Shown: positions 14,668 to 64,000, numbered from the stretch's first letter. The stretch: DNA of 64,000 nucleotides from Psilocybe cubensis (GCA_017499595.2 CM039006.1:930001-994000), one strand, 5' to 3'. Made by a program: numbers and translations. The notes: generated by a model not told the origin, from the sequence alone.

Positions 14668-16162
<1,495 letters not shown>

Positions 16163-35867: not shown

Positions 35868-36413
35868 TATTGTGTTTGACAACAAACAGGCTTCAAACAT
35901 AAATTGTGTTTGAACTCTGTGTGACATCAAACACCAAATATGTTTGAGCACTGTTTGTTAAAAAATATTAGCCTGACATAATTCCTGTTTGAATAGCTGT
36001 ATGATAAGGTTCTGTAAGAGATCAACCAGATAATCCGTATCTTATCTAACATGAATATCAAACATACTTTATGTAAGCATTCAACCAGAATATTTGTCCG
36101 AAATCAAACAATTATCAAACATCCATTTTTTCTCGCATCTGATTGGTTCATACATATCTGTTTGGCAATCTGTTTGATTTCGGACAAATATTCTGGTTGA
36201 ATGCTTACATAAAATATGTTTGATATTCATGTTAGATAAGATACGGATTATCTGGTTGATCTCTTACAGAACCTTATCATACAGATATTCAAACAGGAAT
36301 TATGTCAGGCTAATATTTTTTAACAAACAGTGCTCAAACATATTTGGTGTTTAATGTCACACAGAGTTCAAACACAATTTATGTTTGAAGCCTGTTTGTT
36401 GTCAAACACAATA
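35868..36413. repeat. Long foldback inverted repeat / MITE-like element: 243-bp arms (35868-36110 and 36171-36413) with a 60-bp spacer
   Basis: The arms are reverse complements with about 3 mismatches by eye and are rich in TCAAACA/TGTTTGA. The outermost TA could be a TA target duplication. Confidence 0.9.
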
Positions 36414-36494
36414 CATCAACTAAACAGACAGTAGATTACAAAGCAATGTAATCCAATACAATATTTTTTTAGTCTTACAAACCCACCCAATTTT

Positions 36495-36812
36495 CACATA
36501 AGACAGTTTATTTATAACGTACATTACCTAAGATTTAATAATAAGGATATTACGTGACATACGGTGGATTTACTCCCGCTACCTAATTAGGAGATTAGCG
36601 TGATGTACGTGTGATTTAGCCTGGCAAATCATAGCGTACATGACGTGCCATTTAGCGCTAAATGGAGCCGCCGGGTGGCCTGCGGGATCCGCGCGTCTAC
36701 CTACACGGAAGAAACACGGGCCGGAAATGAGCCGGACGGGTCCATTTGCATCCCGTGTATTGCAAGCAGACGGATCCGCTTGACCCGTGTTGTGCTGTCA
36801 GACGGACCCATT
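36495..36812 (+). repeat. Left terminal inverted repeat of the KDZ element (318 bp)
   Basis: Reverse complement of 51746-52063; contains the perfect 18-bp palindrome CCATTTAGCGCTAAATGG (36648-36665). Confidence 0.95.
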
Positions 36813-36890
36813 TGACCCGTATCTTCCCAGAGAGGGAGGGATATTTGAGAGGTATTGCGAATCAATGAGCACAAGGGCTCCAAAAATAAT

Positions 36891-38176
36891 TTATTCATCT
36901 CTACCGGTATACAAATGCTTTTCCAAACTCGATTCAATCCCTGCCAGCCCAGCGTCAATTTCCTCCAGCGCATTATAAGTCAGAATTTCTGACTGCAGCT
37001 GATGCAGGCGGAGGTTCTTAAACGTTGTGACCTTGCTGTCATAACTATTGTCGCCGACGGAACTGTCGATTATTTGGTCGTATGTTGCCCGTAGCTGCTG
37101 CTCGGTATAATTCTAAAATAGTTGTCAGTATCTAGTGCTTGGTAATATCTGAGTGCATACATATAGAAAAGGAGGGTTAAAATATGCCGTCTGATCTGTC
37201 ACATCCTCGAACTCAATGTCAGACTGGGTGGGAGGCGAACCGGGGTAGCCGCCCATGGGATCAAACCTGCCGTAGGTTCGAAAATAAGGGTTTTGAAGGA
37301 GCAGGTGGCATGCTTCAGGGGGTGGAGAATAGCGACCTTGCTTCCTCTCAGAGGAAATAGCTGGACGAGAGTCCATAATGATTTTGTCGACGACAGACGT
37401 GTATGAAACATGTGCTGCCATCAACGGCGGAGCCACATCATCCCGGATGACAGGCATAGGTGGAGGATCCAGGGTATCTGGAATAACAGGCATAGGGGGA
37501 GGAGCCAGGGTAGGTGGAATGACAGGCATAGGGGGAGGAGCTAGGTTATCTGGAATGATTGGCATTGGCGGCGGAGCCGTGTCGTTCCGGATGACAGGCA
37601 TTGGCGGCGGAGCCGTGTCGTTCCGGATGACAGGCATTGGCGGCGGAGCCGTGTCATTCCGGATGACTGGCATTGGCGGCGGAGCCAGGTCTTTCCGGAT
37701 GACTGGCATAGGGGGCGGAGCCAGGTTAGCTGGAATAACAGGCATAGGGGGTGGAGCCAGGTTAGCTGGAATTACTGGCATTGGCGGCGGAGCCAGGTCT
37801 TTCCGGATGACTGGCATAGGGGGCGGAGCCAGGTTAGATGAAATGACTGGCATAGGGGGAGGAGCCAGGTTATCTGGAATAACAGGCATAGGGGGTGGAG
37901 CCAGGTTATCTGGAATGACTGGCATTGGCGGCGGAGCCAGGTCATCCGTCCTTGCTGTGCGTTTGCTTTCCTTAGAGTTGCTAATATTTGAAGACATTGC
38001 TGATGCTCAGAAATCAATTAAAATTTACTTGAATTAATGCCATTAGTCTTACATTTTATAGGTTTTACGGGAGGAGGTTCCTTCAGTTTTTCAAGAAGCC
38101 TGGTAAGATTGTTGAGACTGGTGTAGTCAATGGGGGAATTTTTGCTAGAGGTGGGAATAAAGTTGTAGGAGGACAT
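36891..38176 (-). CDS. KDZ-element accessory protein containing a 12-aa Pro-rich tandem repeat; probably 3 exons
   Basis: ORF 37125-37997 plus an upstream exon (MSSYNF..., ATG 38176) and a downstream exon (NYTEQQLRATYDQ...GRDE*, stop 36891), joined by GT-AG introns. Confidence 0.62.
37420..37948 (-). repeat. Coding 36-bp minisatellite (xxx[LT]APPPMPVI), 14 full copies plus 1 partial
   Basis: Counted from the translation of ORF 37125-37997. Confidence 0.92.
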
Positions 38177-38482
38177 ACAGTCCAGAAAGTGCAACTGGGT
38201 GGGCTTGTTTATATATCTCACGGAATACAATACTATCCGAGGATTCTCCATGACACGGAAATAGATTCACCCGTGTATCGAACTTAGCAACTTTTGCACA
38301 AACTGGATCTGGTGAAGAAATCACATGACTCAGATTGTACATGTTTGTGTATGGTTTTGTTTTGCGGGACCGCTTTTTTTTAGACTTTTTTTAGACTAAC
38401 TCCAACCACGATCACCACCCTCACGTTCTACCGTGCCTCACCACTTTAACGCGTCTTCCCCCATAAAAACACGCTTTTTTCA

Positions 38483-41053
38483 ATGGCCGCTTCATCTTCC
38501 ACCACCGCCACCTTCGCCCAACGCCTCGCTGACTGGGAAAAAAAGTTTACCGAGTGCTACCGCAACGGTGAAAGCGCGTTCAACGCTGAGTTGGAGCAGC
38601 TTTACAGGGACTTGGTAAGTTCTCAATTTTATAAGATCATGACTTGCTCAACAAAAAAAAAAAAATTCCAATAGGTTCCATTGTGTCAGGAGCATGTCAG
38701 GGACGCCGCACGCTTCCGGCTCATTGACTATGTTGCGAGCCCCGTTGTCTACTCGTACAAAGTCATCCAGGGCAAGGACGGCGAGAACATCTACAGGTTT
38801 GAGGTCGACTGGGCGACGCTCAAACATCAAGTCGCCAACTTCAAGGCCTACCAGGAAGGCCAGGAGGCACAGAGGAAGAGGAGGGAGGAGGAGGAGCAAG
38901 AGAAGAGGAGGGAGAAGGAGGAGCAAGAGGAGGAGGAGAGGCAGAGGGTGGAGGAGAGGAGGAAGAGGGAGGTGAGGAGGAAGAGGGAGGAGAAGAAGAA
39001 GAGGGAGGAGGAAGAGGAGAGGCAGAGGGAGGAGGAGGAGGAGAGGCAGAGGGAGGAGGAGAGGAGGAAGAGGGAGGAAGAGAAGCAGAAGGTGGAGGAG
39101 AGGAGAAAGGATGAGAGGAGGAAGAGGGAGCAGGAGAGGAGGACCAGGGAGCAGGAGAGGCAGAAGGCGGAGGAGAGGAGGAAGAGGGAGCAGGAGCAGG
39201 AGCAGGAGCAGGAGACAGACGAGGAGAGGAACAAGGAGGAGACGGAGAAGAGACGGGCCGAGAAGGGCAAGGGCAAGGCAGTCGAACCCCCGGTGGAAGA
39301 CGGACCCGTGACAGACGCCCACAAAGACAAGGGCAAACGGAAAGCGGCGGACCCCGTGGAGTCCATTCAGTTGGCTCCAGCGGATTACAGGGGCCCACGG
39401 ACAAAGAAGGGGGAAATTATTCCCCACATTACCGCCTCCAACATGCCCGGTCACCCAGCGTACAGGGAGAAGCTGGAAAGATTGGCGAAGTCCAAGCAGG
39501 GGAAATTCAGGAGCAAGGCGATCATAGGAAGCCACACGGACGAAGACGCGGACGCGGACGTCGACGAGGACGACGAAGGCGATAACAAAGGGGCACCGCC
39601 TACCACCCCCACTGCCACCCCCACCCGGAAGATGCGCACGCGTTCCGTAAAGAAGGACACCGAGGACGATGTCCCCCCCATCAGGAAGGCGCGGTCGAGA
39701 TCCCAGAAAGTGCGCCAGGTGCCAGAGGGGATGGTGGACATGGTGGAAAGGTGCACGGCATGCATCAAATTCAAGGTGCCATGCTATGTCAAGGGGGAGA
39801 CAGGCACTGAGCCTCTCGTCCCCGTGAAGCACCAATCTTGCGAGTCTTGCAAGTCTCGCAAGATCCACTGCAGCTTCTACCCGGGGCGCAACACCTTCGT
39901 GGGTCAATTTTTGACGACGCCACTGGGAAGCTATGGGGAGGCGTTGAAGTTGGAGGAGGGAGAAGATGTTCCGGCGAAGGGGAAGGCCGGGGAAGGGTCG
40001 TTCCCCGAGGATGTGGGAGAACTGCTTGTGCAGCTCTTTGAGCGCCAAGGCAGAATCATAGAACGGCTGGACGGGTTATCCGCGTCCATGACGGCGATTA
40101 ATGCACGGATTGCGACGTTTGCCGAGACGAACTTGGCGGTGGAGAACAGGATGAAGAGCATCGAGGACGGCATCCAAGAGGTGAAGGCCGAATGGACCAT
40201 GGCCAAAGAACAAGTGGCAGGAAGCACCTCGCTTTCCGTCACGATGTTCAACGACATCACCAAGAGGATCAACCACGTCCGAGATGTGGTCGACGATTTG
40301 CTGGAGCAGGATGAACAAAGGAATCCCGCCCCCAAACAGGCAGCAGGACCCTCCAAGACGGAGGTCGAACAAGAATCGGGTCCGTCGCGGACCCGTGAAC
40401 CCACCTCTGTGCCACAATCCCCAAGCGCACCACCACCGCCAGCACCCCTCCCTTCCCCACCTCCACCTCCAGCAGCACCCATTCTCCCTTCCCCTCCTCC
40501 ACCACCGCCAGCACCTGTCCTCCCTTCCCCTCCCCCACCTCCACCCGCACCCGTCCTCCCTGCCGTGTCTGCGCCACCAACAGCGCTATTCTTGCCCGGT
40601 TCGACTCCGGAAGCGCCTTCGCCCCCCCCAGCTGGCCGACCCTCGCTCCCACCGGTACCGCCCATCCTTTCCCTGTCTCCACCACCCCCTCTCCCAGCTC
40701 CACGTCCTCGAAGTTCGACGTCAAAGGCCGCACCGTTGTCAAAGGGTGCACCATCGTCAAAGGCCGCGCCATCGTCAAAGGCCGGCCCATCCTCAAAGGC
40801 TAAGCCATTGTCAAAGGCTAAGCCATCCTCCAAGGCTGGGCCATCCGGGAATGGACACTCATCGGAGTTGTCTGATCCCTCGGACAGCGACGAGGTTGAA
40901 ATTGTGGAGGAGGAGGATGTTGAGATCGTGGCGTCCACGCTGCCCGCGTCGAACATAGCCACAAAGACAAGGGCTGGACGAAAGCGAAAGGCGGAAACGA
41001 CTCTGGCTGAAGCATCGCGCTCGCCCAAAAAATCCAAGGCCCAAAAAAAGTAG
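38483..41053 (+). CDS. KDZ-element accessory protein: E/R/K charged helix, Zn2Cys6-like binuclear cluster, coiled coil, Pro-rich tail and basic NLS-like end; intron ~38614-38673
   Basis: CTAC-x6-C-x18-CESC-x6-C at 39752-39871; long EEER/RRKR tract at 38870-39250; C-terminal RKRK...KKSKAQKK. Confidence 0.75.
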
Positions 41054-41331
41054 TGTATTTCAATTCTTTGTAACTTTTTTTTGGTCTCCTTTTTTGCCTG
41101 TCATATATTACATTGCTCACATCCCTATACAATTTTTTCATCATTTGGACTGTATATAGTTTTTACTCTCATGTGCTCATCTGTTTTATACCTCTCCCAA
41201 AAAGTAGCACTTGATGATTTTTAATGAACCCCGCTTTCTGTTTTGATTTTGTGTGAAAACATGTTTGAGAAACATCAAGATAAGAATAAAAAGCATCACA
41301 TTCAATAGGTATCATGAATCTACTTCAACAG

Positions 41332-43642
41332 CTAGGCTTTCAAAGTTTTTTTTCTTTGTCTTTTACCTGCTACAGCAAGCAGACTTGCTTCCTGAAGTGC
41401 TAAGGCATCCGAAGTCACATTCCTGCGGGCCCGTGTTTCATCCGTATCTGGACTTGTTACTGTCTCCACAAAGGCATCACAAGTCACGTCCCTGCCGGCC
41501 CGTGTATTATCCGTGTCTTGGGTTGTTCCTGTTTGGACTCCATCTTCTTCCACTGTGTTAAGTGGATCTGAGTAGGGCTTTGTTCTTTTCCTAGGTTGAA
41601 TCCTTCTAGTTGGTTTTGGCTTAACTGGGGGGGGTACAGAACTCTCTTCATCGGGTCCGTCCATTTCCGCCGTTCCGACATATGGCTTTGTTCTTTTTCT
41701 TGGCATAATCTTTCTAGCTGGCTTGGGAGGCGCCTCCTCAACCTCTGGAGTTGGGCTGGATGATGGATTGACAATTGTTGGGCTGGATCTACTTGGTAGA
41801 GAGGGTGGCTCGCTAGATCTTGAAGGTGCGTCGGTAGGAGTCTCATCCGTCTCTGGCGTGACTTCAAATCTGGCAGTAGTGCGTGGCATCGCGGATGCCG
41901 GACTACCCCGTCCATTATCAAACTCTGACAGATTGGATGATTCAGAGTCGCTTGAAGATTGGGTTTGAAGTCGTATAGCTTTTTGCCTCAGCCGACGTTT
42001 GGTTATGGCTGCAGGAGGTGGAGGTATCGGGTGGGCTTCTAGGCCGTCAAACAAGTTGGACGGATAGAGAGGTTCCATAATGTCATAGCCATTTCCAAAA
42101 ACCTTTGAGAATTTAAAGGGGATGTCTCCTTGCGCTTGACGGTCCCTCCATAGCTTGAGAATTGCAGAAGTTGACTCCAGGCGGAGCCGGCTCGGATCCG
42201 TCACGGGGATTGAACTTGGCCAATACTCTGGATCAATCATTTCTGCAGAACGCCTTTCAAGAGCATCCCAAGGAACACTTGAACCAGGCCTATCCTTGGC
42301 TAAAGCTGTATACATAGTTAGCAAGTTTGTTGAGGACATAGACAAATTACACACCATAAACCTTGTTCATGTAAATTCTAATAATTGACTTTTGCGCATA
42401 AGCGACTTCTCTCCCAGTTGAGCCATAGATAGGACTAGGTACTATTGGAAATCCATTGCTGCTAAACTTGAGGGATTTTTCATGAAACGATGCATCTGGC
42501 AGTGCTGGATTGGCCACACCCTTCTCTATTTCTGAAATGTGGACGAGGTATTGAACAAACGCTCTGCGAAAAGCGGCCAACTCGGATGGAAAGAGTTGCC
42601 CAAAGGAAGGAATTCTGACATCGTCGAGTGCTAGATCGCTTGTCTGGGTCCTTCAATGCCCATCAGTCAACATTAATACGGGCCAAATTATTCCGCCGTG
42701 AATGCTTACGGCGGAAACTTTATCCGCCGTAGGGTGTTTACGGCGGATAAAGTTTCCGCCGTAAGCATTCACGGCGGAACTTGTTCATGCCGTGTTTAAC
42801 ACTTACATTGAGTATTCGATTTTACCCTCAATATCATAATGCCCCTCAAAGGTAATGGACCTCATACCCATTCTCTGCCACTTAAGTTTCTCCATTTGTC
42901 GAAGTATTTTTCTGCCTTGCCTGGCAGCAGTCCTGCAGATGTCAGATTGACGGCGGAAACAAGTTCCACCGACTCACTTTGCCTTCATTGATTTTGAAAC
43001 ACCTTTCTTATTCCATTCCTCGAGGATCTCCATGAACCTGTCCCGCTCCTCCTGAGTCAATCTGGCCTCAACCTGCTTACGTCCTTGTTGATAAAACTTC
43101 ATCCAATCTTTACTTCCACGAGCAGCATTCCCTGATAGAAGCGCAACCTCGGAGTCAATCTCTGCCGACTTCTCCTCACGGAATACCGTCTGAAAGGTTA
43201 TACGGGAGTTCAATCCTTCCAATTTTACACCAATTCGATTTGACGCATGGTTTCTAAACCAATTAAAAATTCGCTATTGTGATGGTTTATGTGTGTAACA
43301 AAATTTTCAAAGAAACAACGAGCTCACATGCTTCTTCACCTTCCATTCTTTGTGTAGTTGCTTATCTTCCTTCCTAGCACGTCTAGAGTATCTGTGATCC
43401 CATGTAGCTTGCAGCTCAGGTATGACAGTGTTCTGTATGTAGTCTGCTTTGGATGACTTTGATGTATCTTTGTAGGGCTGTACATGCTTTTTCAACACGC
43501 GCATTTCCTTTGTGGTCCATATATTTGATTCTTCCGGCGGAAAGTCACCCTCCGCCGTCTGTCCGCTTCTGGGTCCGTTGTGGGTTGTGGCATTTGCGGT
43601 AGAAGGAAGCGGATCCACGTCGGGGGATGCAATGGTGGGCAT
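41332..43642 (-). CDS. KDZ-element accessory protein with N-terminal HTH/Myb-like segment and a divergent HMG-box-like domain, multi-exon
   Basis: WTTKEMRVL...NWFRNH at the N-terminus; FQTVFREEKSAEI...WMKFYQQGRKQVEARLTQEERDRFMEILEEWNK resembles HMG-box helices. GT-AG introns join ORFs 43307-43642, 42974-43222, 42347-42580 and 41332-42357. Confidence 0.6.
42691..42779. repeat. Perfect 41-bp inverted repeat (7-nt loop) inside an intron of the HMG-like gene
   Basis: TTCCGCCGTGAATGCTTACGGCGGAAACTTTATCCGCCGTA, loop GGGTGTT, then the exact reverse complement. Confidence 0.93.
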
Positions 43643-44521
43643 AATTGCAGCGATGTAACAAGTAGCTTATCGATGAGTATCTGTGTGATCTAGTCAAATC
43701 TCACGTCATACGGAGATAAAATAAGCTTCCGATCATACTAAATGAATGATGTGATGTCATATTTTTCCCAATCAGGTAATCCCGCTTCATCGTCGGCCAC
43801 GATGATCAAAGCATGCTGGTCGCTGTCACATACATTGACCTCATGATTTTGCAATAGTTCCCTCTGCACTCAATCAATAAACATGAAATTTTGTAAACAT
43901 TTAGCGCTTTATATAAAGATAATCTTACAAGGTTTTAAATTCTTGTTAGATGGCTGTAAAGATACAGAAACACAAAATTCAAATTCACGTCTTCTCACCC
44001 AAAACTTGTGAAACCCAAAACGGCAGTCATCTCAGAGACCATGAGAGGTATTCAAATGCATAATTTTTTTCAAAAAATATAATGATCCCAGTGAGCTCAT
44101 TTTGACACATTTTCTAGTATATTGAGAATATCTCCTTAAATACGAGGATTCACATTCTACAAAAAATGTCATTCGGTAGCTATTAAAAATATCTTTCATA
44201 TGATATACGCCGGAGGAATGAGGGGCCAGCCAGTGAAAAGATATTTCAAAAACACTCCAAAGTGTGGTTCTGAAAGGGTCGTTCTGCATCATATTGTACA
44301 TTTATGATGGGATCACGTCCATTTTGTGCATCTCTGGATTAAGTTTTGTTCATAACATTTCACTCACTCATCCAAATATGCTGCAAGATAGATCATATGA
44401 AAGCTATTTTTCTCCTCTTTAAAACGGCATAATTGAGGGAAATTTATCTACAGAAATAAACATGTTATACTACATTTAGATCTGCGCTCACAGGCTGTCA
44501 GACTCTTTGTTTCCAACATCC

Positions 44522-47500
44522 ATGGGCTTCAAGAAAGTACCTGATAGGGGATCGGATGAGGAGTTTCCCAATGTTCGGGAGGCCTCCTGGTCTAGTGGGG
44601 CCAAGAAACGAAAGAGAGGGCGGCCGAGGATCCACAAACTTCCTGCAGAATCATCATCAACAAACCTCCCTCAAACAACGACTTACTCTTTCCAAAACCA
44701 TGAACACAACATTCTGGAAGAAGAAATACCTCATTATCCGGGAGATCTAACTGATCAGCAGGTACTTGATAACCTGAGACAGCTAGATGACGACAGAACG
44801 GGAGGAAAGGTATGTTTTAACATGTTTTCAGTAGAATGATCAGGATGACTTTACCTATCCAGTCTCAAAATGATTACCTGAGGGAATGGCTCCCGAAACG
44901 AGAGGTGTATCTTGGAACAATGATTGGAGGAGAAGCCCCGGATCCGGATCTGAATGGACGGTGTCAGCAATGTCAAGGAATGTCTGGAGTGTGGAGATGT
45001 TGCCAATGCTTTGGCTCTAGAATTTTGTGTTCTGAATGCCTGCGAAGAAACCATCAATTTACACCTTTCCACCGCGTTGAGAAGTGGACGGGTCTATATT
45101 TCCGTCCGGGAGCTCTGTGGGAAGTGGGTGTCAAGTTGTATTTGGGTCATAATGGGAAGCGGTGTCCTTATCCCACGGATCCGAGCCATCTAGGATGCGA
45201 CGGCGGAAACAATTCATCCGGGAGTCATGGGCACGGCGGAAACAATTCGCCCATCTTTGAGGATGAACACGGATTGGACCTGGATCCGCTTCCTGCGAGC
45301 AATGACCAAGAATCCTTTACGGCTCAGCTTCTGGCGGACCCGGAGGTACCCCATTTGGTTGAGCTGGACGATGGAGACGATGAAGATGATGATCTATTCG
45401 AGGAAGTCGATACAACCTATCTGGACCAACCTCGTCCAAAGGCAGCAGACAACAATGGAATTCCTTTCAAGGCAATTGTGCACACCTCCGGAGTCCATTA
45501 TCTGCCCGTGCGAACATGCACATGCCGGTCCGTCCGCCTTCCGTCTATCGATTTACAGTATCTGGAGATGGGATTATTTGCAGCCAGCTTTGAAAACGTT
45601 CAAACTGTGTTCACAGTTGAGGTCCTTGAGGACTTTCGGATGGACAACCTCGAGTGCAAAACGTCGGCTTATCAGTATTACCAAAAGTTGCGAAGACTGA
45701 CTTCGCCAGCGTTTCCAAAAAAGGTGCTGAACCGCTATCGTGAATTGAGAAGGCTTAGTAGAGAATACAGGGACCTTGTCCTGAGACGACAATACGGAGA
45801 AGGGCATACAAGAGAAGCGGTGGTCCCTTACTATCATCATTGCCATGATTCATCACCAGAGAGGATGGGTATTAATGTATCTGATCCAATTGACGGCGGA
45901 TCTGATAGTCCGTCTCAAGAAGTCGGAATGTCAACGGACCCGTCTCTGGGACACGGCGGATTAGATGGTCCGCCTGCACCACAAATGACGCGGACCGAGG
46001 ATCATCCCAAAGTTGAAGATAGGAGAGGGAAGTTGGCCTTATTCTGCCCCGCCTGTCCACAGCCTGGAATAAACCTACCTGATACCTGGATTGATGATGC
46101 TGACAGGCAAGTTTTAGTTATTCTTCAAGGGTGACTGCAATTAACAGCAAATAGCAATCTGTACATACGTAGTTATGTTGCAGATGGTAATTTCAAAGCA
46201 GATCACCTCAATCAGAAAAACGAGGGAGACGATGTTTGGTTGAGCGTTGGAGAAGGATACATGACTGCTCCGGGCCCATACAAGGAGCACATCAAGGAAG
46301 CAATTTCTCTTGCTCCACGTTATAAACGGGTGCGTTATCTACCATGATTTATCTTTCACGGCGGATGCTTACGTTCCGTGTCACAATCTTCCACGGCGGA
46401 TGCTTCCCTTCCGTGTCAAAAAAATCTTCCACGGCGGATGGCTTATCCTCCGTGTAAAAAAATATCAGGAACAAACATGTCATAACTACCACGCCCAGAA
46501 AGCTGAAAACAGAGTCAGCCCGGGTAAGAGAGTACGTGGAATTGGGGCACACGCTTGCGCTAGGCACGGATGCTTCTGTCCATCCAGCGTTGTCGATTTT
46601 GACAAAGGCGAAAAGCAGATGCACATGGATTGGTCTTTGACTCAGGCCAGGGAAACTACCAACACACAGGGAATCACAAAACATTTGGAAATCTACGATA
46701 TAAACTGTCAATATTGCGTTAACTTGGCAAGGCGTCTCTCAGAGTCCACAAAAATGCATTGGCCACCTTCTGTTAAAATGATTTTTGCAATTGGTTTATT
46801 TCACGTCCACGGGCACAAGACGGAATGTCTTTACAACTACGCATCCACCTATGTCCCGGGTGTGGGAATCATTGACGGAGAAATCCTGGAGCCGTTGTGG
46901 TCCGTGTTAAATGACACATCCCGGAGTACACGTTCCGCTACCACTGCCCATCGAGCAGAGGTTTTGGACGACCACATGGGGGATTCCAACTGGAAGAAGA
47001 CCATTAATATGGCTGCAACAATTGCTGCAAAGTTCAAACGGGCACGGGAACAGTCCGGAATCACAGACCGATTTTATAGGGGTATCACGGATCAACAAGA
47101 TTCCGGGCTCATCAACACTTGGGAAGATGAAATTTCAAAAGCAGAAGCGGACCGAGAACAAGGTGTGGCCGACGCTGTTGGCAAGGTAATGGCAAGCAAA
47201 GTGAAAACGGCTGCTGGACGCCAAGAAATTGAATTGCATCTTTCAAATATGGAACTTACATCTAATGGTGCTACTGGAAAGGCAGCATGGATATCATCCG
47301 GCTTAAAACTGGAGCAAGCGCAGTACGATTATTTCAATTGCATCCTACAGAATTTAACATGCTTTTAGATTGGAGCTCAGGGACCATGTCAGAAAGCTCG
47401 GAAAGCATCCTTCCACCGCGCAGAAACTTGACTTGGTCAATAAACGTCGCTCCATGCGGACCCGCGTTGAAGCCTTCTGTCGATCCGCTATGACCTTCAT

Positions 47501-48444
47501 GGGCGAAGATGTCTTGGAGGATATTCAAGGGGACATCGCTCCCATACTTGACTATGAAGTCAGTGACAACGACGATCCTGATCTTGGAAATGTCAACATT
47601 ACCCGCGCGGATCCGGAACGACAGCCGCTTCCGTTTCCCTCCGCCGTCAAACAAGATTTCTTTGACGGCCTTGACGCGGGAACAAACCTCATTTTAAAAG
47701 GGCTTCGCAAACTTGAACTTCAAATAAGACATGGCCACGCAGAGGACTGTCTGGAAGCGGTCCGGTCAGCCTTGATCCAGCTTTCTTGGCAGTATAAATA
47801 TCAGGTTCGGACCGCCGACTCCGTCTATATGGGGACTCGTGCTTGGGATGGCGTCAAGCTTTTGAATGCTTCCTGGAAATTGCACCGGCGACTCTACAAC
47901 ACAAACCGTCAGAAGATGATCTATTTATCTGCTGGCGTGCGAGACGAGGATAATATTCGGAAACAATATCCCATTCTGCAAGTCCATGATTGCAAGCATA
48001 GTAATGCCGTGTCGGATCCGAACATTCGCGGAGGAAGCTCGGACCGTCTAAGTTGGATTTGGAGATCCCGTCAGGGCCTGGACAATGATAATCAATTATA
48101 CGTTAATGAGTGTGAGTACTGCTATTTGTATTTCTAATTTTTTTCTCAAGGGCTTCTTAGTCTTTAGGCTAAACTGGCTCCGCGCGCGAGCTCAGAGGAA
48201 TAGATGGCAAGAGGAGCTGGCCTTGACAAAAAAGGAAATGGAATGGACTGTCAGATTTTATGTGTATATGGCAAAGACATGGCGTGCACGGCATGATTTT
48301 GTTCCTGACAGGTTAGTTGGTCACAGGGCAAATGCTCAAAAGCAGATTGCCATGTGGAATGATCTGGGGCGGGCCGCGGATAAGGTCTTCCGTCAAATTA
48401 ACCCGGAGTATCCGTCCGTGTGGAGATTTATAATTACAGATTAA
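44522..48444 (+). CDS. KDZ transposase with CxC2 cysteine cluster, about 6 exons, apparently intact
   Basis: N-terminal CQQC..WRCCQC..CSEC..H..PFHRVEKWTG; CxC2-type IVHTSGVH...CTC...TVFT; LALFCPACPQPGINLP; ADGNFK; CARHG; DFDKGEK; YDINCQ; FHVHGHKTEC; DGEILEPLWS; WLRARAQRNRWQEE. No stop codon after splicing. Confidence 0.92.
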
Positions 48445-48488
48445 CCAGTTCTTTGAACATTCTTGTTGTATCCCATCTCGTTGAATTC

Positions 48489-50113
48489 ATGCACTTACCG
48501 CGGCTTTTTACACCTCCTGTCGAGGACGAACATCATCTCCTTACCTATGATGAGCGACGTGCTCTGGCCAAAGTTCATGTCCATATTTGTGGTGCACGGA
48601 TCCGTGCCGGATACCGTTTGTTCATTGCAAACGGAGACTCTGTTTCCTCCGTGCGTCGCCAAAAATGGATGTATTTGCTCGACCTGGAGGTGGTAAGACA
48701 GTAATTTTGAACGATTATATCTTGTATTGAGAACTGGTCGTCAGGCTATACTGCTGAGAGTACTCGGATACTGCTATGTCAATGGATTCCAAGTCGATAT
48801 TCCATTTTTTATATCAGAAATTCTCAATCAGAGCGTACATGCCGTTTTGAACCGAACTCCCCACCATCGAGCTGTTCTATTTGAATCTCTAAATCAAAGC
48901 TGGTCAGCATGGGAAGATGATGAAATTTTAAATCAGACCAAGAGCTGGGGATATTGGTGGAGGGACGGATTTGCTGAAGGCGATGAGTGGCAAGTTGCCT
49001 TTGTTACCGTTGAATCGCAAGCAAGAGAATTTTGGAACAAGGTATGTTTTTTTATTGCTGTGGATTATATCTGATTTGCGTCCTTCCCACCAGGTGGTTC
49101 TGCCTGAATACCAACAAGAGGTACTCCGGCTAAATAATCAGAGGAAAGAAGCTAAGGAGGGCGCAAGTTCATCTACCTCTGGGCCTCCAAGAAATCAGGA
49201 AAACAATCCCAAGGGCAAGGGAAAGGCGGCTGAACGGACATCCGTCCCCATCTCGGGGAAGCACGGATCCGCGTTGACGGGAAAGCACGGCTCCGCGTTT
49301 TCACCGCCCACGGGGAAACCCAATCCGCCGACCCGTGTTGCAAACACGCGGGATGAAACATCCCCAATTGCAATTTCTGACCACAGACCGCCCTACTGTC
49401 CCCGCTGCGGTCAGCCTATCCTAACGGGCGTAATGAGGGAGTTGGCTCACCTGCGCCGGAATGTGGCGGACAAAATGAAAAATGCCCATAAAGCAGTGAC
49501 TACTTCTTCGGCCGCCTTGGGCAGATATTCTGTATTGGAGAAGATGTGGATTGACTCTAAGGAGCACCCGTTCTCTAACGGCAAGGGGCTTTCAGCCAAA
49601 TACAAATTTCAGCATCCCGTTCACCCTTCTCCTGACAGTTGGGGCGCTATAACGGCTCAAGCCTGGTCCTTCGAGGTCTCAAAGCTCAAAGTCGCTTCAT
49701 TTTACATCAACGACATTTTTTATTCTTTTATTGCCGTCAAGGAACTACCTTTTCATCCACTCTGGTATCATTCGCCACCCTCCAACACTGCAAATATTCA
49801 TCTCCCAACAGATACTCTGCCTACTCCCGGTTCCGTCAGCCCTCCGTCAAATGCACACACCAGCAATGCCTTCCTTTTTAACGCAAGGTCAAGACCTGTT
49901 TTCCCGGGAGAAGAGGATGATATTGATAGTACGTCCGATACCACTGAATCCTCTACACCAGCTACGTTTTTAGAGCATCTCGCACAGGACTTTGAAGAGG
50001 AGGCGGATGAGGAGTCTTCCGCCGGTGATACGACGGAGGAGTCAGATGCTTCCGGTAACTCGGAAGAGCTTAGCGAGGACGTGTCGGAAACACCCTGGGA
50101 TGAGGAATCTTAG
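48489..50113 (+). CDS. KDZ-element accessory protein of unknown function (multi-exon, CPRC motif, acidic tail)
   Basis: ORF pieces 48420-48704, 48727-49074 and 48971-50113 joined at GT-AG introns; no recognised domain. Confidence 0.55.
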
Positions 50114-50340
50114 TTGCCCACCTCTCGCACAGGACATCGAAGAGGAGGCGGATGATGCCTTTTCCGCCGGTAATACGACGGCGGAGTCCGATGATTCCGG
50201 TAACCTTGGAAGAGCTCAGCGCGGGCGCGTCGGAAACACCCTGGGACAGAGAATTCTGGTTGTTCTGTAGCTTTCGTACCGTTTTGTTTTGGAAATATAA
50301 AAAAATCTTCCCCAAACCCAACTTCCAAGTCAAAAACTGA

Positions 50341-51620
50341 TCATATTTCAAAATCAAAAGTGTTGGTGGCCGGTAAATTTGCAAAAAGATCGTACGTAGT
50401 AGACCATCCCGCCTCTTGGACTCCCAGCTCTTTAAATACATTCCTACGCATGTAATAGACTATGACTGCCCTATCTCCCTCGCACACCGCGCCGTGTTGA
50501 AGCAACCTGCCGGTAATTGCAACAAGGGTCATGGGATCATACTTGTACCAAAGTCCAAGGCCAGGAAGCTCAAGCCGTCCGTGTTCACCCTTCCCAAGTG
50601 GCATCAAAAAATCGTACCATGAGTAGCATGACCCATTATCCCGATGGTACGGTGTATCTCGGTTGCTGATGGCGGTCATGACTCCAAAGGGCGAACTCCA
50701 TATTGTGAGAATTTGCTTCAATATTTCGGCCTTATGGACGAACTCCGGTTCCGCAGCAAGCCGTTGAAGAAATTTTATTCCCGCCCGGTACTGCTCGGGG
50801 TGTATAATGCTCAAGATGGCTCCCAGCAAAGCCGAAGATGTCATCATGTCTCGTATAAACTCCTGTCCAATAGGATTACACAAGTCCAAGGAGACCTCAA
50901 GCGGGTTGGACGTCTGAGGAAAATATGAGGCAGTATAATACTTAGCAAACAAGTTTCTCACCTCATGGCCTTGCTGAAACCATGCCGGGGAAAAGTTAAG
51001 ATTTCCAGGTTGAAGCCAACCTGGCTCATGTCGAAAGTAACTGTCATTGACCCTCCAGCTTGTGGCCAAAGGTGCCGCCTTGTGAATCATTGTTTCAATA
51101 TCCCGTAATGAATTCCACACACTCTCCTGTTACTCTTTAGAACGCATAATATAGGAATTAATCGGTCCGTTTCTAAAACTCACCACCCTTGTCTCTGACA
51201 AAATACCTGGCAGGTACCACACCAATATGTTGCCTGCACTATCGATTACAGTTCCGGGCAGGGTTTGGTACTGTAACGTGGAATGCACCGGAGGAAACTG
51301 GTCTTTCAGGCGAGCCTCAACGGCAGAATTCTGACCCGTGCAACGTGCGCTGAGATGGGTCAAATATTCTTCTGCATCCCACGTCGTATATTCTGCCATT
51401 CACACATTATTTAATCTCAATTTTCAAAGCTTATTGATTGCATACCTTGATTTTCAATTGCCTGCAAAATCACCTCCACAGCTAGATTGCACTCAAACAT
51501 GGTCTCAGCACTGAAGTTTTCCCGGATTTGATTAGGCAGTTCTGCATGCCAAAGACAACTAGCTATCTTTGCCTTCATGTAGTTTGAGAGGGATTGGGTT
51601 AGCTCAAAGGCATAATCCAT
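50341..51620 (-). CDS. TET/JBP-family 2-oxoglutarate/Fe(II) DNA dioxygenase, 4 exons
   Basis: PGTVIDSAGNILVWYLPG and NFSPAWFQQGH, then the catalytic HxD (NRDTPYHRD), the distal H (LLQHGAV) and the 2OG-binding R (DRAVIVYYMR). This matches the fungal TET/JBP genes associated with KDZ elements. Confidence 0.9.
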
Positions 51621-51745
51621 ACTATCAGGGTATGTGGAAAGGAATTTGCTGCCAGTATAATCTATACACCTTATTACATATATTAACGGTCATCCAATGT
51701 ACGATTCAAGGCGGATATTTGTCGGAATACAGAAGCGGATGGATG

Positions 51746-52063
51746 AATGGGTCCGTCTGACAGCACAACACGGGTCAAGCGGATCCGTCTGCTTGCAATA
51801 CACGGGATGCAAATGGACCCGTCCGGCTCATTTCCGGCCCGTGTTTCTTCCGTGTAGGTAGACGCGCGGATCCCGCAGGCCACCCGGCGGCTCCATTTAG
51901 CGCTAAATGGCACGTCATGTACGCTATGATTTGCCAGGCTAAATCACACGTACATCACGCTAATCTTCTAATTAGGTAGCGGGAGTAAATCCACCGTATG
52001 TCACGTAATATCCTTATTATTAAATCTTAGGTAATGTACGTTATAAATAAACTGTCTTATGTG
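51746..52063 (-). repeat. Right terminal inverted repeat of the KDZ element (318 bp)
   Basis: Reverse complement of 36495-36812. Confidence 0.95.
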
Positions 52064-52543
52064 CAATTTTCGGGGCCCGGTTTACAATGTTAAGCAATAT
52101 TTTTATTAGCTTTAAAATGTCCAAACAATTATTGGTTCACCAATGCAAATTCAAGTAATAATTTTCGTATGTTTATAATAAGTCCGGTTGACCGGCCATT
52201 ACATAACCGGGCGACATAGGGGCCGTATGTCTTGGCCCGGCGCGTGTGTTAAATATAACATACGATCGCTCAAACAAAGTTCCAATCACGGTAAGCGTTA
52301 TATTTCTCTACGTATACATGTAATAACTACATTAATCCGTTCAAAATTTGTCGATATCGAGCTCATCGTCGACGACGATGACCAAAACGGGCGTGGAAAA
52401 GCGCGCCGCAGTCGTCAATGATGGCCGCGCGTGCTTCTTTTCAACTACCACCACCACCACTACCACCACCAAACCCGCCACAGCGCGCCAGCGAGTCACC
52501 ACTGCATTCTAACGGCATAACAAGAGTTAACGGAAGACGACAA

Positions 52544-52938: not shown

Positions 52939-53092
52939 AGGGTCCGTTGTACAACCATGAAATATCATTTTATTTTTCCAAATCTACTCTTGTGAATACA
53001 ACACACGTTTAAACAGACTGGGGAGAGCCATTATAACCCCGCGCGTCCTCCTTCGATATGTTCTGTACACTCTGCCAGGCCTTCAACGGACT

Positions 53093-53256
53093 CTGCGCGC
53101 GCATGCACATCAAACGCGCGCGCATGCGCATCAAACGCGTGCGCACGCGCATCAAATGCGTGCGCATGCGCATCAAACGCGTGGACGCGCGCATGTGCAT
53201 CAAACGCGCGCACATGCGCATCAAACGCGTGGACGCGCGCATGCGCGTTTGATGCA
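53093..53256. repeat. 21/27-bp minisatellite of (GC/AT) alternating tracts punctuated by ATCAAA(C); reads HARAFDA repeats on the - strand
   Basis: About 6 direct units of GCATCAAACGCG(CG/TG)..., ending with one inverted unit GCGTTTGATGC. Confidence 0.85.
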
Positions 53257-53993
53257 TATCCGTTTCCACTCCCCCTATATTCATGAGAAGGCGACAAAGA
53301 CATGTCGCCAAACTCTGAATAGTGAGGATGTGGGGGTGGGGACACATATGACCTTGTCCTGTAGTTCAGGTTTGGGGTTGAAGGAGGAGGCGGAAACTGT
53401 GATTGAGGGACTGGGTACGCGTACGCGTGTGGATATTGTTAGAAAGTATGCGGATGTGAATGCGATGGATTGTGGTGACTCGAGTGCGAGTTTGGTTGAG
53501 AGTACGAATGCGAATATAGGGATGTTACAATAAAATTTCAGTTAAATATCAATACATTTCCTTACCGAATCACGCAAAAATCAAGAAAAAATTTGTGTAT
53601 TACTCGCCCAGACAAGGATACATCTAAAAAGGTGTTAGTAGAGGTACAAGAGAATTCACGACAGACTCACATGAAGGTACAGTTAGTATTCAGCGAACCC
53701 GAGTTCATCGAGGTTGTCAGGGTACGTATTGGTGCCACCCCTATCCGTTATCGTTATCTGTTACGGTCCCACGCTGTCATGCCTTGTTCTATCTTTGTGT
53801 TCGGTCCCACGTCTATCGTTCTCCTGTTTCATCTATTGATAGTTGTTATATGTCGAGTACTCTGGTCCGGGAAGTAGTTACTCCGGTCTCCATGTATATA
53901 TAGGGTCCTGGGGTCAGTAGTCAGTCCCCAGCTTCGATATCAACTTGGTCTTTGGGCACTCTTCTCTCTTGACTTAAGTCGATTCCTAACAGC

Positions 53994-57900: not shown

Positions 57901-59460
57901 TGGGTGAGCATTTCAGATGTTGCAGCTTTGCCAAACTGTTGCTGATGCCAATCTTGAAAAGTGTCTGTGAGCTATGACCCAAATGTTAATATGAATAGTA
58001 CATGCCAGTCAATACAAACTTACTTTAGGGATATACGCAATATGGTGCGTAGCGAATTCTTTAGGTTTCCCTCTGGTGTATTTTGACTGGTTGAGGATAT
58101 ACATAAGGATCGGCCATATAGAAGCATCGCTAAAACTGGTCAGGTGGGTAGAATCTGAAAAAATCCCGATACCAACGACAAAGGGCTCCAGGTGTCTGTG
58201 GGGACCTGTGCGTGGCTCTGACTTGATCTTTTCATACTCTTCATTGAAAATGTCCGCCACGTAGGACTCTGAGAATAAGTGTTCGGGTGGTTCGTCGGGT
58301 GAGGGACGCCAAAATTCTCTGTATGGTATGGTCGTATACGTCTCAGAGGTGCATTCTGCAAAGGCCTGTTTGATAACTTCTAGAGGTTTTTGATACATGA
58401 CGTTTTCAACAACAAATTGAGGAGCCTCCTCTTCCGAATCGAATATGAAACCATCGCATGGCACTGGTATTGAAAAGCTGCCCTTGATCCACCCAGCTTC
58501 CGGTCGACACACTTCTGACAAAGTAGGATCTGTAGAATTTTTTTGGGTGGAGATTTTGTCCAGACGCGCTGCCTCTCGAGCAGTAGAAAAGGAGGAATCA
58601 AAGTCCTTGGGGTCAAAATCCGGGTCCAGTACGACTTGGTGAATCAATTTGTCGGTATCAGCGTAGGATTTAGTACCGTGGCCGTTGTAAAACCAAGACA
58701 TGATAAGTTGAGTAGAACAATTTTTGAATAGCAAGCTCTTGTCGTCTTTTGGCTCAGAATCCAAGGACCAATCCGAAGGTAGGGCCATTGGTGTTCCCTC
58801 TGACACCTTTCTCAAAGAGTCGGCTGGGTCTTTGGCAATATTTGGAGAATCGGACACTGATGACAGTGTGAAATGTTCGTCAGGAGTAATAGAAGGGGGA
58901 CCATAGGTATACTCTTGAAATATCCCATAGCCATTCATTGGTGTTTGATACAGACTCTCCACAGATGGAGGTTCCTGAGGCTGAGGTGGTTCCTCCTCCA
59001 CCACTGGTGGTATAATTAGAGGAGGTTCGGGTGGGACCTCGTCTCGGAAGCGCTGTGGCAATCTAATAACGCGTGGAGGAAGTCCTCTGGGCCGTTCAAT
59101 GGGAGGTGGTGGTGTCGGGGGATGTGGTGGTGGTGTTGGTGATTTAGGTGGAGGCGCAGGGGGCATTGGAGGTGGTACCATATCCACATCGAGATACTCA
59201 TGATGGACATCAACGTCCATAGGCCCGGGCTCATTATTCAGGGTTGCCTGGTGCGAAGAACCACTGGCAACATTACTGTTCTGATTCTGCCTGCTGAAGT
59301 TTTCCTGGAACCCCTTCAGGACCTTGCTCATTGCAGCAGGATATTTTTTACATTTGTTGGTATGCTGCTTCAAGGAGCGACCTGGTACGAAGAGTTTATG
59401 GCACCCTAAGCAGGGTCTTTTTTCGTCGGACATAATTACGGCCTGCTGAAGTACAACTAT

Positions 59461-59753
59461 CCACGCAATGAGCCTGGATAGGGAGTAGAAAATCCTTGCC
59501 CAAGCAATGAGCCTGGGCAGAGTAACGATACCCTTATCCCAGCAATGAGCCTGGATAGGGGGGATATCCTTGCCCAAGCAATGAGCCTGGGCAGGCGAAC
59601 GACACTCTTATCCCAGCAATGAGCCTGGATAGGGGGTAGAAAATCCTTGTCCTAGCAATGAGCCTGGACAGTGGATAGGAAGCTCTTATCCCGGCAATGA
59701 GCCTGGATAGCGAGCCATCGATTCGTTCTGACCCAAGCAATGAGCCTGGGTAG
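59461..59753. repeat. Array of 8 GCAATGAGCCTGG-core palindromic units (~36-44 bp spacing) directly upstream of the Plavaka ATG
   Basis: Cores at approximately 59466, 59504, 59542, 59578, 59616, 59655, 59693 and 59737. Confidence 0.9.
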
Positions 59754-63237: not shown

Positions 63238-63433
63238 CTGCCCTGGCAATGAGCCTGGGTAGTTTAAGCGTTCTGCCCTAGCAATGAGCCTGGGTAGTTT
63301 ATGAGTTCTGCCCAAGCAATGAGCCTGGGTAGTGTCTCGCGTTCTGCCCTAGCAATGAGCCTGGGTAGGTTGCGCGTACTGCCCGAGCAATGAGCCTGGG
63401 TAGTGAGGCTGCCCGAGCAATGAGCCTGGGTAG
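63238..63433. repeat. Second array of 6 CTGCCCnAGCAATGAGCCTGGGTAG units upstream of the 60-63 kb gene
   Basis: Same core as the 59.5-kb array, with short variable linkers. Confidence 0.9.
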
Positions 63434-63564
63434 CGAAGAAGAACCAATGACGCAGGAACGTGTTGAGATCACCACGCGTGTCGGAGTTTGAAATTGCCAT
63501 CAGGCGGAATCTGAATTTGGGTAGGGTTCCGTTTGTTGGCTCTGTTGACTTCCGCACCACTACC

Positions 63565-64000
63565 ACCCTTCAACCCACGGAAATACCTGGGGGTTCGTTG
63601 GGTGGCAGTCTGCTGACTACGGTGATTCCGTAGTCTGTAGGCTGCTCAAGTCGGTGCCCACACCCTTCAACCCACGGAAATACCTGGGGGTTTGTTGGGT
63701 GGCAGTCTGCTGACTACGGTGATTCCGTAGTCTGTAGGCTGCTCAAGTTGGTGCCCACACCCTTCAACCCACGGAAATACCTGGGGGTTCGTTGGGTGCG
63801 GCTGCTTGACTATGGCAATTCTGTAGTCTGGCGGTTGTTCGTCTCGGAGTTTGGTGGCAGTCTGCTGACTATGGTGATTCCGTAGTCTGTAGGCTGCTCA
63901 AGTCGGTGCTCACACACTTCAACCCACGGAAATACCTGGGGGTTCGTTGGGTGCGGCTGCTTGACTATGGCAATTCTGTACTCTGTAGGGTGCTCCTGTC
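63565..64000. repeat. 97-bp tandem repeat with composite variants, running off the window end
   Basis: ACCCTTCAACCCACGGAAATACCTGGGGG recurs at 63565, 63662, 63759 and ~63914; units contain the hairpin GACTACGG-TGATT-CCGTAGTC or a variant. Confidence 0.9.

Follow-up and report, generated by a model that had tools for sequence, protein, structure and literature searches.

Sequence-specific recognition of a transposon by a protein of its own making is known already from VANC and from TnpA of En/Spm. In En/Spm and Ac the recognised words are short subterminal repeats (the TnpA 12-mer and AAACGG, respectively), which lie within a few hundred bases of the element ends and are bound by a protein that the element encodes. 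For VANDAL21 of Arabidopsis, Hosaka et al. (2017, PMC5735166) report experimental evidence of VANC binding and of the methylation loss that results from it, and they describe the VANC targets as arrays of the motif YAGTATTAY that are variable, often in tandem and different between related families. We analysed a stretch of 64,000 nt from Psilocybe cubensis (GCA_017499595.2 CM039006.1:930001-994000, hereafter the window), to which all comparisons between element and surroundings are confined, and which contains a Kyakuja-type KDZ DNA transposon with a TET/JBP gene (36495-52063). This element is crowded with the 8-nt word ACGGCGGA, and one of its genes, gene B, encodes a six-cysteine protein that may read that word. 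What appears to be new is the zinc-cluster-like candidate reader together with arrays of CGG-containing words in fungal TET transposons.

In several respects the locus resembles the VANC/VANDAL21 system as described in PMC5735166: a short word is dense in its own DNA transposon and rare elsewhere (here 19 versus 2 copies, within the window), the word occurs in tandem arrays, related families have different words, an accessory protein other than the transposase is encoded by the element, and the arrays are dynamic, i.e. they are tandem and palindromic and one of them has a shorter allele in another run. The VANC motifs are, however, mainly non-coding and in one orientation, whereas the present sites also lie in coding exons and mostly form inverted pairs. 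In addition, the candidate reader is zinc-cluster-like and, unlike the VANC system, the element carries a TET enzyme; the two systems are compared here by their features alone.

The KDZ families, to which the element belongs, were reportedly defined by Iyer et al. in 2014. Like the Kyakuja TET+ transposons of the Agaricomycetes, for which Kojima (2025, PMC12730594) describes a CxC2 KDZ transposase, a TET/JBP gene, a 7-bp target site duplication and CA..TG termini, the element begins with CAC and ends with GTG, is flanked by the 7-bp duplication CAATTTT (36488-36494 and 52064-52070), and encodes a KDZ/CxC2 transposase (Pfam PF18758, E=7.6e-38, and PF18803, E=1.4e-21) and, internally, a TET/JBP protein (PF12851, E=1.5e-18; minus-strand match at 50344-51129, flanked by the transposase gene and the right terminal repeat). 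It differs from the Kyakuja families of Laccaria, which the same paper describes as being without terminal inverted repeats, in having such repeats of 318 nt. These repeats are nearly identical, and together with the target duplication and the intactness of the genes this points to a recent insertion, so that the element would be a young Kyakuja-type KDZ transposon. A term search of the main text of Kojima (2025, PMC12730594) gave no mention of zinc, binding sites or subterminal repeats, and in a search of the literature KDZ transposons were nowhere described as having such word arrays or an accessory protein of the zinc-cluster type; Iyer et al. 2014, which may mention accessory proteins, lay outside the scope of that search.

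Exact matching recovers 21 copies of ACGGCGGA or its complement in the window, of which 19 lie inside the transposon (between 37424 and 50185), i.e. 19 copies in 15.6 kb against 2 in the remaining 48.4 kb. The original prediction had listed about 18 copies in the element, and all 18 positions prove exact; the one that it missed is at 41666 on the minus strand. Where it had noticed a single copy in the host-gene half, two exist outside the element, at 1037 and 20188. It had proposed a k-mer comparison of the element with the genome; in an unbiased comparison of the element with the remainder of the window, ACGGCGGA is the most enriched 8-mer (19 versus 2). When the whole window was shuffled 100 times with its dinucleotides preserved, the word turned up 1.49 times on average and never more than 5 times. 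Since a whole-window shuffle is the wrong null for one element, we also trained Markov models on both strands of the element itself, and these expect 0.32 to 1.77 copies at orders 0-3 and 5.1 copies at order 4, against the 19 observed. It is, therefore, extremely improbable that base composition, CpG content or codon use account for the enrichment. Admittedly, codon pairs such as GGC GGA (Gly-Gly) and CCG CCG (Pro-Pro) are plausible where a protein is of low complexity, and many copies of CGGCGGA come from a 36-nt coding repeat. Nevertheless, the excess survives correction for composition (more than tenfold over the element-trained orders 0 to 3), the CpG observed/expected ratio is lower in the element (0.82) than outside it (0.91), so that the element is not CpG-rich, and copies of the word lie in introns, occur on either strand and are read as codons in at least four different ways.

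The copies are spread over the genes of the element, whose exons were mapped by tblastn with annotated relatives. The features concerned are the following.

36495-52063: Kyakuja-type KDZ DNA transposon with TET/JBP gene, 15,569 bp, defined by its termini, target duplication and the Pfam domains CxC2, KDZ and Tet_JBP
36495-36812, plus strand: left terminal inverted repeat, 318 nt
36880-38400 (outer bounds approximate), minus strand: gene A, proline-rich, with a 12-residue repeat (APPPMPVI...)
38483-41050, plus strand: gene B, accessory protein with a six-cysteine domain
39752-39871, plus strand: six-cysteine domain of gene B, C-x2-C-x6-C-x18-C-x2-C-x6-C (Pfam, profile search, AF2 model)
41335-43642, minus strand: gene C, conserved accessory protein (annotated relative P0065, 668 aa)
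42650-42805, minus strand: gene C intron, 156 nt, with the palindrome 42691-42779 (89 nt) and six copies of the word at 16-nt spacing
42932-42976, minus strand: gene C intron, 45 nt, with one copy (42950) that has an imperfect inverted partner
44522-50110, plus strand: KDZ transposase gene, with CxC2 and KDZ domains
46330-46465, plus strand: transposase intron, 136 nt, with three 35-nt tandem units, each ACGGCGGA-N9/10-TCCGTGT
50123-50262, plus strand: duplicate of the transposase 3' end 49978-50116, after the stop codon
50344-51689, minus strand: TET/JBP dioxygenase gene
51746-52063, minus strand: right terminal inverted repeat, 318 nt, differing from the left repeat at one base

The original prediction had placed the copies in introns and in low-complexity inserts of the transposase, which holds for 10 copies in the three introns and for 4 in such inserts; two of the three introns, however, belong to gene C, and the five other copies lie in gene A, in gene C exons (two), in a later transposase exon and in the duplicated 3' tail. 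The transposase gene itself has eight exact copies, namely three in its intron, one at 47640, and four (45200, 45233, 45893 and 45953) in two disordered, lineage-specific coding inserts, where they read as DGG or HGG; relatives in other genera do not have these inserts, and in a Psilocybe family that is 87% related they are different. The copy at 47640 reads as SAV, the gene A copy at 37424 as APP, and the two gene C exon copies (41666 and 43551) both as TAE. Because the same word thus occurs in several frames, on both strands and in introns, it is a feature of the DNA and not of the peptide. The remaining copy, at 50178, lies in a tandem duplication of the transposase tail (about 140 nt, 49978-50262, 88% identical over 82 nt and 79% over 58 nt), and the original tail carries ACGGAGGA at the corresponding place. 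The gene A copy is at the edge of the 36-nt tandem array that encodes the 12-residue repeat, with units of the form GCGGCGGA-N10-TCCGG, and gene B holds three one-mismatch variants of the word.

Ten of the 19 copies come from three local arrays: the perfect palindrome at 42691-42779 (41-nt arms, 7-nt loop, six copies), the 35-nt tandem units at 46351-46463 (three copies) and a 33-nt duplication with the word at 45200/45233. This raises the prospect that the word has no function, a CGG-rich palindromic seed having been multiplied by slippage, hairpin-primed copying and in-frame tandem duplication where the element can bear insertions, and then inherited without selection. The palindrome, folded as DNA, reaches -56.7 kcal/mol (z -17.8), and its length differs in another public run, where one contig (X10, depth 2) is without 63 nt of it; contigs from four public runs with lower word shares gave sparse, near-identical pieces only. 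Furthermore, in the degenerate paralogue P0006 two of the four coding copies are gone. When the arrays are collapsed, however, about 11 independent places remain by our count, with unrelated flanks and spacers, and this is still far above expectation. Together with the inverted pairs and the related loci described below, this makes an origin without function quite unlikely in our estimation. P0006 itself is a truncated protein named as from Psilocybe cubensis and shows many changes of the R-to-W, R-to-C and R-to-Q type; judged from these protein changes, the underlying base changes would be mostly CpG transitions, which fits the decay of a silenced copy.

The word belongs to a wider arrangement of inverted pairs. 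The most enriched 4-mers of the element are CGGA (2.4x) and ACGG (2.0x), and 12 of the 21 copies of ACGGCGGA have TCCG 5-11 nt downstream, compared with a background of 4.7% (binomial p 2e-11, with amplified copies included). Typically the inverted partner lies 7-10 nt from the copy, which yields CGG-N-CCG sites of the Gal4 kind. CGGA-N-TCCG pairs as such occur in the element 9 times with spacer 0 (CGGATCCG, found once per terminal repeat and at seven interior places) and 3, 5, 5, 10, 3 and 3 times with spacers of 7 to 12, giving a total of 38 pairs as CGGATCCG or CGGA-N7-12-TCCG (in triplet notation CGG-N2-CCG and CGG-N9-14-CCG). Spacers of 13-29 have about 0.7 pairs each, which is the chance level, and the other 48 kb of the window contain only two pairs at spacers 0-12, one of them at spacer 1. 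After removal of the array members we count about 21 pairs at spacers 7-12 against about 4 expected, several of them in transposase exons, which speaks against mere multiplication of a seed. The majority of the inverted pairs lie in the gene body of the transposase. By our reading, complementarity in the pairs that have no full 8-mer ends at the 4-nt core, and because it is confined to that core the pairs fit half-sites better than hairpins. A role as RNA hairpin was weighed separately and put aside: copies of the word are found on either strand of genes that differ in orientation, and where the full word is absent the arms of a pair have only 4 nt.

The most promising reader of such half-sites would be the product of gene B, because the CGG triplet is the classic target of zinc clusters, its nearest structural relatives, because the gene is conserved in related elements, and because the sites in the window form inverted pairs like the targets of zinc-cluster dimers. 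The protein starts with a helical domain at its N-terminus, to which are added a long charged region, the six-cysteine domain, a helical stretch that we read as heptad-like and a proline-rich tail. Its relatives are rare (3 in a word-indexed search and 5 in 1.84 billion representatives), and one of them, P0064, keeps all six cysteines at 30% identity and scores 21.7 bits against the Pfam model Zn_clus (PF00172), i.e. above the cut-off of 21 bits, whereas the domain of the window reaches 19.2 bits (E=0.0014). Each triad of gene B matches the first half of that model. A profile of nine family members, compared with the sequences in the PDB, has eight best matches that are all Zn2Cys6 domains (Gal4 1d66 at E=3e-4, Ppr1, Leu3, further Gal4 entries and Lac9), followed at lower rank by AlcR, Put3, Pho7 and Hap1. 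The label Zn2Cys6-like that the domain at 39752-39871 had been given is thus supported, its only database relatives being of the Gal4 type, though with a Pfam score below the cut-off.

The canonical spacing of Zn2Cys6 domains is C-x2-C-x6-C-x5-12-C-x2-C-x6-8-C. Both triads of gene B match it, but the link between them has 18 residues (7-20 in relatives). As in the Gal4-type domains (PF00172; 1d66, Ppr1 1pyi, Leu3 2er8), there are two C-x2-C-x6-C triads and a loop lysine at the position of K18, and the candidate targets are CGG triplets in inverted pairs. In the alignment of the family domains (about 20% identity) the six cysteines and this one lysine are the only invariant columns, and the lysine aligns with Gal4 K18, which contacts CGG bases in the Gal4 structure. 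Unlike in the Gal4-type domains, the halves are swapped, i.e. the triad resembling Gal4's DNA-contacting first half comes second and the first triad aligns to Gal4's second. The sequence comparisons hence support the view that the gene B domain is a swapped-order relative of Gal4-type Zn2Cys6 domains. AlphaFold (AF2) models the domain with a pLDDT of 75. A homodimer prediction for the six-cysteine and helical region gave a score of 0.11 where the mark is 0.32, and carries no weight either way.

We regard it as quite possible, if somewhat short of probable, that the sites are family-specific binding sites for a CGG-reading protein that the element encodes. ACGGCGGA would then be the commonest word of a dense, CGG-based set of sites, with CGGA as half-site, that is limited to one transposon family and has been accommodated where the Kyakuja/KDZ transposon tolerates it, among other places in introns and in disordered coding inserts. 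The gene B protein would bind these sites, presumably as a dimer, and would thereby find copies of its own family and no others. Its role may be to keep the gene body of the transposase active or unmethylated, with or without the TET enzyme of the element, or, alternatively, to help assemble the transposition complex. The position of the sites in a gene body rather than in promoters argues against a plain activator and fits better with an effect on open chromatin or methylation state. A link between the sites and the TET enzyme is an attractive speculation, prompted by their co-location. As a whole, the original interpretation of the copies as internal address tags is partly supported.

The ends of the element bring in another possible reader. 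Like the repeats of En/Spm and Ac, the present words are short, contain CpG, occur in both orientations and form tail-to-tail pairs, but unlike those repeats exact ACGGCGGA does not occur at the ends and its copies range over 13 kb of the interior, i.e. they are not concentrated at the ends. Related CGGA words do occur in the inner part of the terminal repeats: the inner 140 nt of each repeat are packed with CGG (17 of the 19 CGG/CCG triplets of the left repeat lie there) and include CGGATCCG (at 36771 in the left repeat), which recurs seven times in the interior. Both repeats also carry ACGGTGGA, which is one CpG transition away from ACGGCGGA (left copy at 36561). It could thus be the cysteine-rich CxC2 domain of the transposase that reads CGG words needed at the ends, the interior copies being extra or stray sites. 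The family words in terminal repeats favour this domain as the main rival reader, and a CxC2/KDZ transposase is present in every related locus, whereas a six-cysteine gene was found in only 9. Yet the exact 8-mer is missing from the terminal repeats, the density of sites peaks in the gene body of the transposase, kilobases from the ends, and nothing ties the CxC2 domain to the recognition of CGG. On balance we consider reading by CxC2 unlikely.

We also compared 80 related loci (439 kb in total), which come from one scan of metagenome contigs with a transposase alignment and of which many are kin and not independent. ACGGCGGA is not enriched in them (10 copies against about 13 expected by length alone) and is therefore private to the transposon family of the window. 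Among the 43 loci of at least 4 kb, however, 21 have an over-represented 6-mer of their own (score 20-279), and 20 of these 21 words contain CGG or CCG. Simulations with the same trinucleotide content (40 each for three loci and the element) reach a maximum of about 10-11; in the window, none of three host segments taken as controls exceeds a score of 10, and the segment to the right of the element scores 16, from a tandem repeat. The words are listed here by locus.

CGGCCG: L038 (90 copies in 15 kb), L042 (73), L036, L044, L047, L049, L078
CCGCGG: L060 (32 copies), L019, L003, L004, L007, L028, L079
AGTCGG: L008 (73 copies)
ACTCCG: L041 (44 copies)
CCGGCA: L045
AATCGG: L064
CGCCGA: L062 (the extended word, TCGGCGGA, is one base from ACGGCGGA)
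CACCGA: L030

In these loci the sites are scattered throughout and do not spare the transposase gene; their flanks are unrelated, and the CpG density is ordinary. In a transposase tree with word labels, for which 27 of 81 sequences passed the alignment-length filter and in which many forks stay open, the nearest relatives of the element use CCGCGG and not ACGGCGGA. For the view that the words merely multiplied it counts that close spacings of the sites in L038 and L042 are multiples of three, as in-frame duplication gives; against it counts that different, nearly always CGG-containing words recur in 20 other loci and are mostly dispersed, which local slippage does not explain. A signature of CpGs surviving methylation decay was considered and rejected: CpG observed/expected is 0.82 in the element, and CpGs within the motif make up at most 21% of the CpGs in the strongest related locus.

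The strict six-cysteine pattern, searched in six frames, occurs once in the window and once each in L003, L008, L013, L019, L038, L041, L042, L064 and L078, and a looser pattern added no further loci among the 80. In all nine loci the match lies upstream of the transposase match, in eight on the same strand and in L064 on the opposite one. Where at least 4.7 kb of upstream sequence is available (14 loci), a strong word is present in 8 of the 9 loci with a six-cysteine gene versus 1 of the 5 without. This co-occurrence is suggestive only, because several of the 14 loci are close kin. Similar six-cysteine domains go with similar words in L008 and L064 (AGTCGG and AATCGG). Also for the rival reader CxC2 the related loci hold evidence, since the family word CGGCCG of L038 is present in subterminal repeat units at both contig ends as well as in the interior. 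These units are inverted and about 165 nt long (within 1-500 and 14850-15093), each has a CGGCCG pair 21 nt apart from start to start, and the contig seems to be a nearly whole element of a different family.

Fungal Zn2Cys6 factors are very numerous and transposons often gather sites for host factors, so that a host zinc-cluster transcription factor might read the sites, the element having collected enhancers that tie its expression to a host programme; CGG-N-CCG inverted pairs are indeed the generic target type of such factors. We consider this very unlikely, as promoter regions are avoided and gene bodies are filled, as the host genes left of the element contain no such pairs in 36.5 kb (except the one at spacer 1), and as the different words in related families of similar metagenomes fit private readers better.

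Several findings weigh against the preferred reading, i.e. family-specific sites read by a protein of the element. Firstly, the arrangement of the sites is not what a Gal4-like activator would lead one to expect: exact ACGGCGGA and the inverted pairs are absent from the divergent promoter regions (about 38007-38482 and 43643-44521), where sites of such an activator would be expected, as well as from gene B and the TET gene, and the exact word is absent from both 318-nt terminal repeats. Moreover, zinc-cluster dimers use one fixed half-site spacing and the spacer here varies from 7 to 12. Secondly, three or four local amplifications account for about half of the exact copies, which leaves about 11 independent origins, the loss of two of four coding copies in P0006 points the same way, and the shorter allele of the palindrome, which indicates that arrays change quickly, fits selection and neutral slippage equally. 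Thirdly, the candidate reader is atypical: its Pfam score stays below the cut-off, its order of cysteine triads is unlike that of every solved zinc cluster, and in a Foldseek comparison with the PDB nearly all of the top 20 matches are Zn2Cys6 domains, but with a TM of about 0.4, a best E of 0.27 and none significant. Fourthly, conservation of the motif in related elements, which had been proposed as a check, is not seen: the exact word is not conserved among the 80 loci, the peak at spacers 7-12 is missing from them, and the other families mostly have single dispersed sites and not pairs. The CACCGA of L030 and the top 8-mer of L028, GGCACCGA, come largely from a 24-nt tandem array, L062 has a strong array of a CGG word and no six-cysteine gene in 5.5 kb upstream, and similar words in similar elements could reflect common descent alone. 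Finally, the restriction of any word to its element is seen in this window alone, the metagenome loci being without host flanks.

The TET enzymes of fungal transposons are thought to counter silencing by DNA methylation. Kojima (2025, PMC12730594) makes the case that every TET works for the family that carries it, but also considers, as a speculation, that target specificity may be lacking in the mushroom enzymes. A family-specific DNA word with a reader encoded by the element would, if true, supply that missing specificity. In its widest form the idea is that Kyakuja/KDZ transposons have a private addressing system, in which a swapped-order Zn2Cys6-like protein and CGG words of the family co-evolve and direct activation or TET-driven demethylation to the copies of that family alone. 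We hold this to be doubtful. If it were true, it would be a fungal counterpart of the plant VANC system with a different protein fold, and hence a second, independently evolved case of sequence-specific self-recognition by transposons, and it would offer natural pairs of protein and word for targeted epigenome changes in fungi.

As for the other genes, tblastn found relatives of gene C in 22 of the 80 related loci, and TET matches in 14 of the 80. The gene C relatives lie upstream of the transposase and, in all cases where coordinates were checked, on the opposite strand. The HMG-like protein that had been announced for the element was not confirmed, as gene C matched neither a Pfam family nor a named cluster in the protein Atlas. 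Likewise, Pfam searches with gene A and with the C-terminal extension of the transposase matched no family, and a search of the element against Rfam returned none. The KDZ open reading frame of the window is 99% identical to a protein named as from Psilocybe cubensis, whose 90% cluster contains 39 sequences. The extension at 48163-50110, which the annotated relative (1691 aa) has with about 590 residues, may be a separate or captured gene that the gene model has joined on; a search with its last 393 residues gave no counterpart in the 80 related loci.

Around the element the window holds further repeats. About 80 nt to the left of the transposon lies a near-perfect palindrome of 546 nt (35868-36413; 243-nt arms, 99% complementary, 60-nt loop), which carries AT-rich repeats of about 21 nt of its own and looks like a foldback or MITE-like element. 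Just to the right, outside the element, is a CGCGCG-rich 21-nt tandem array with CGCGCGCATGCGCATCAAA-like units (53075-53262). A second type of transposon is represented by a Plavaka transposase on the minus strand (58012-59607, Pfam E=2.7e-9), whose region shows no dispersed enrichment of a CGG word, and near it, at the right end of the window (63300-64000), there are two kinds of tandem repeats.

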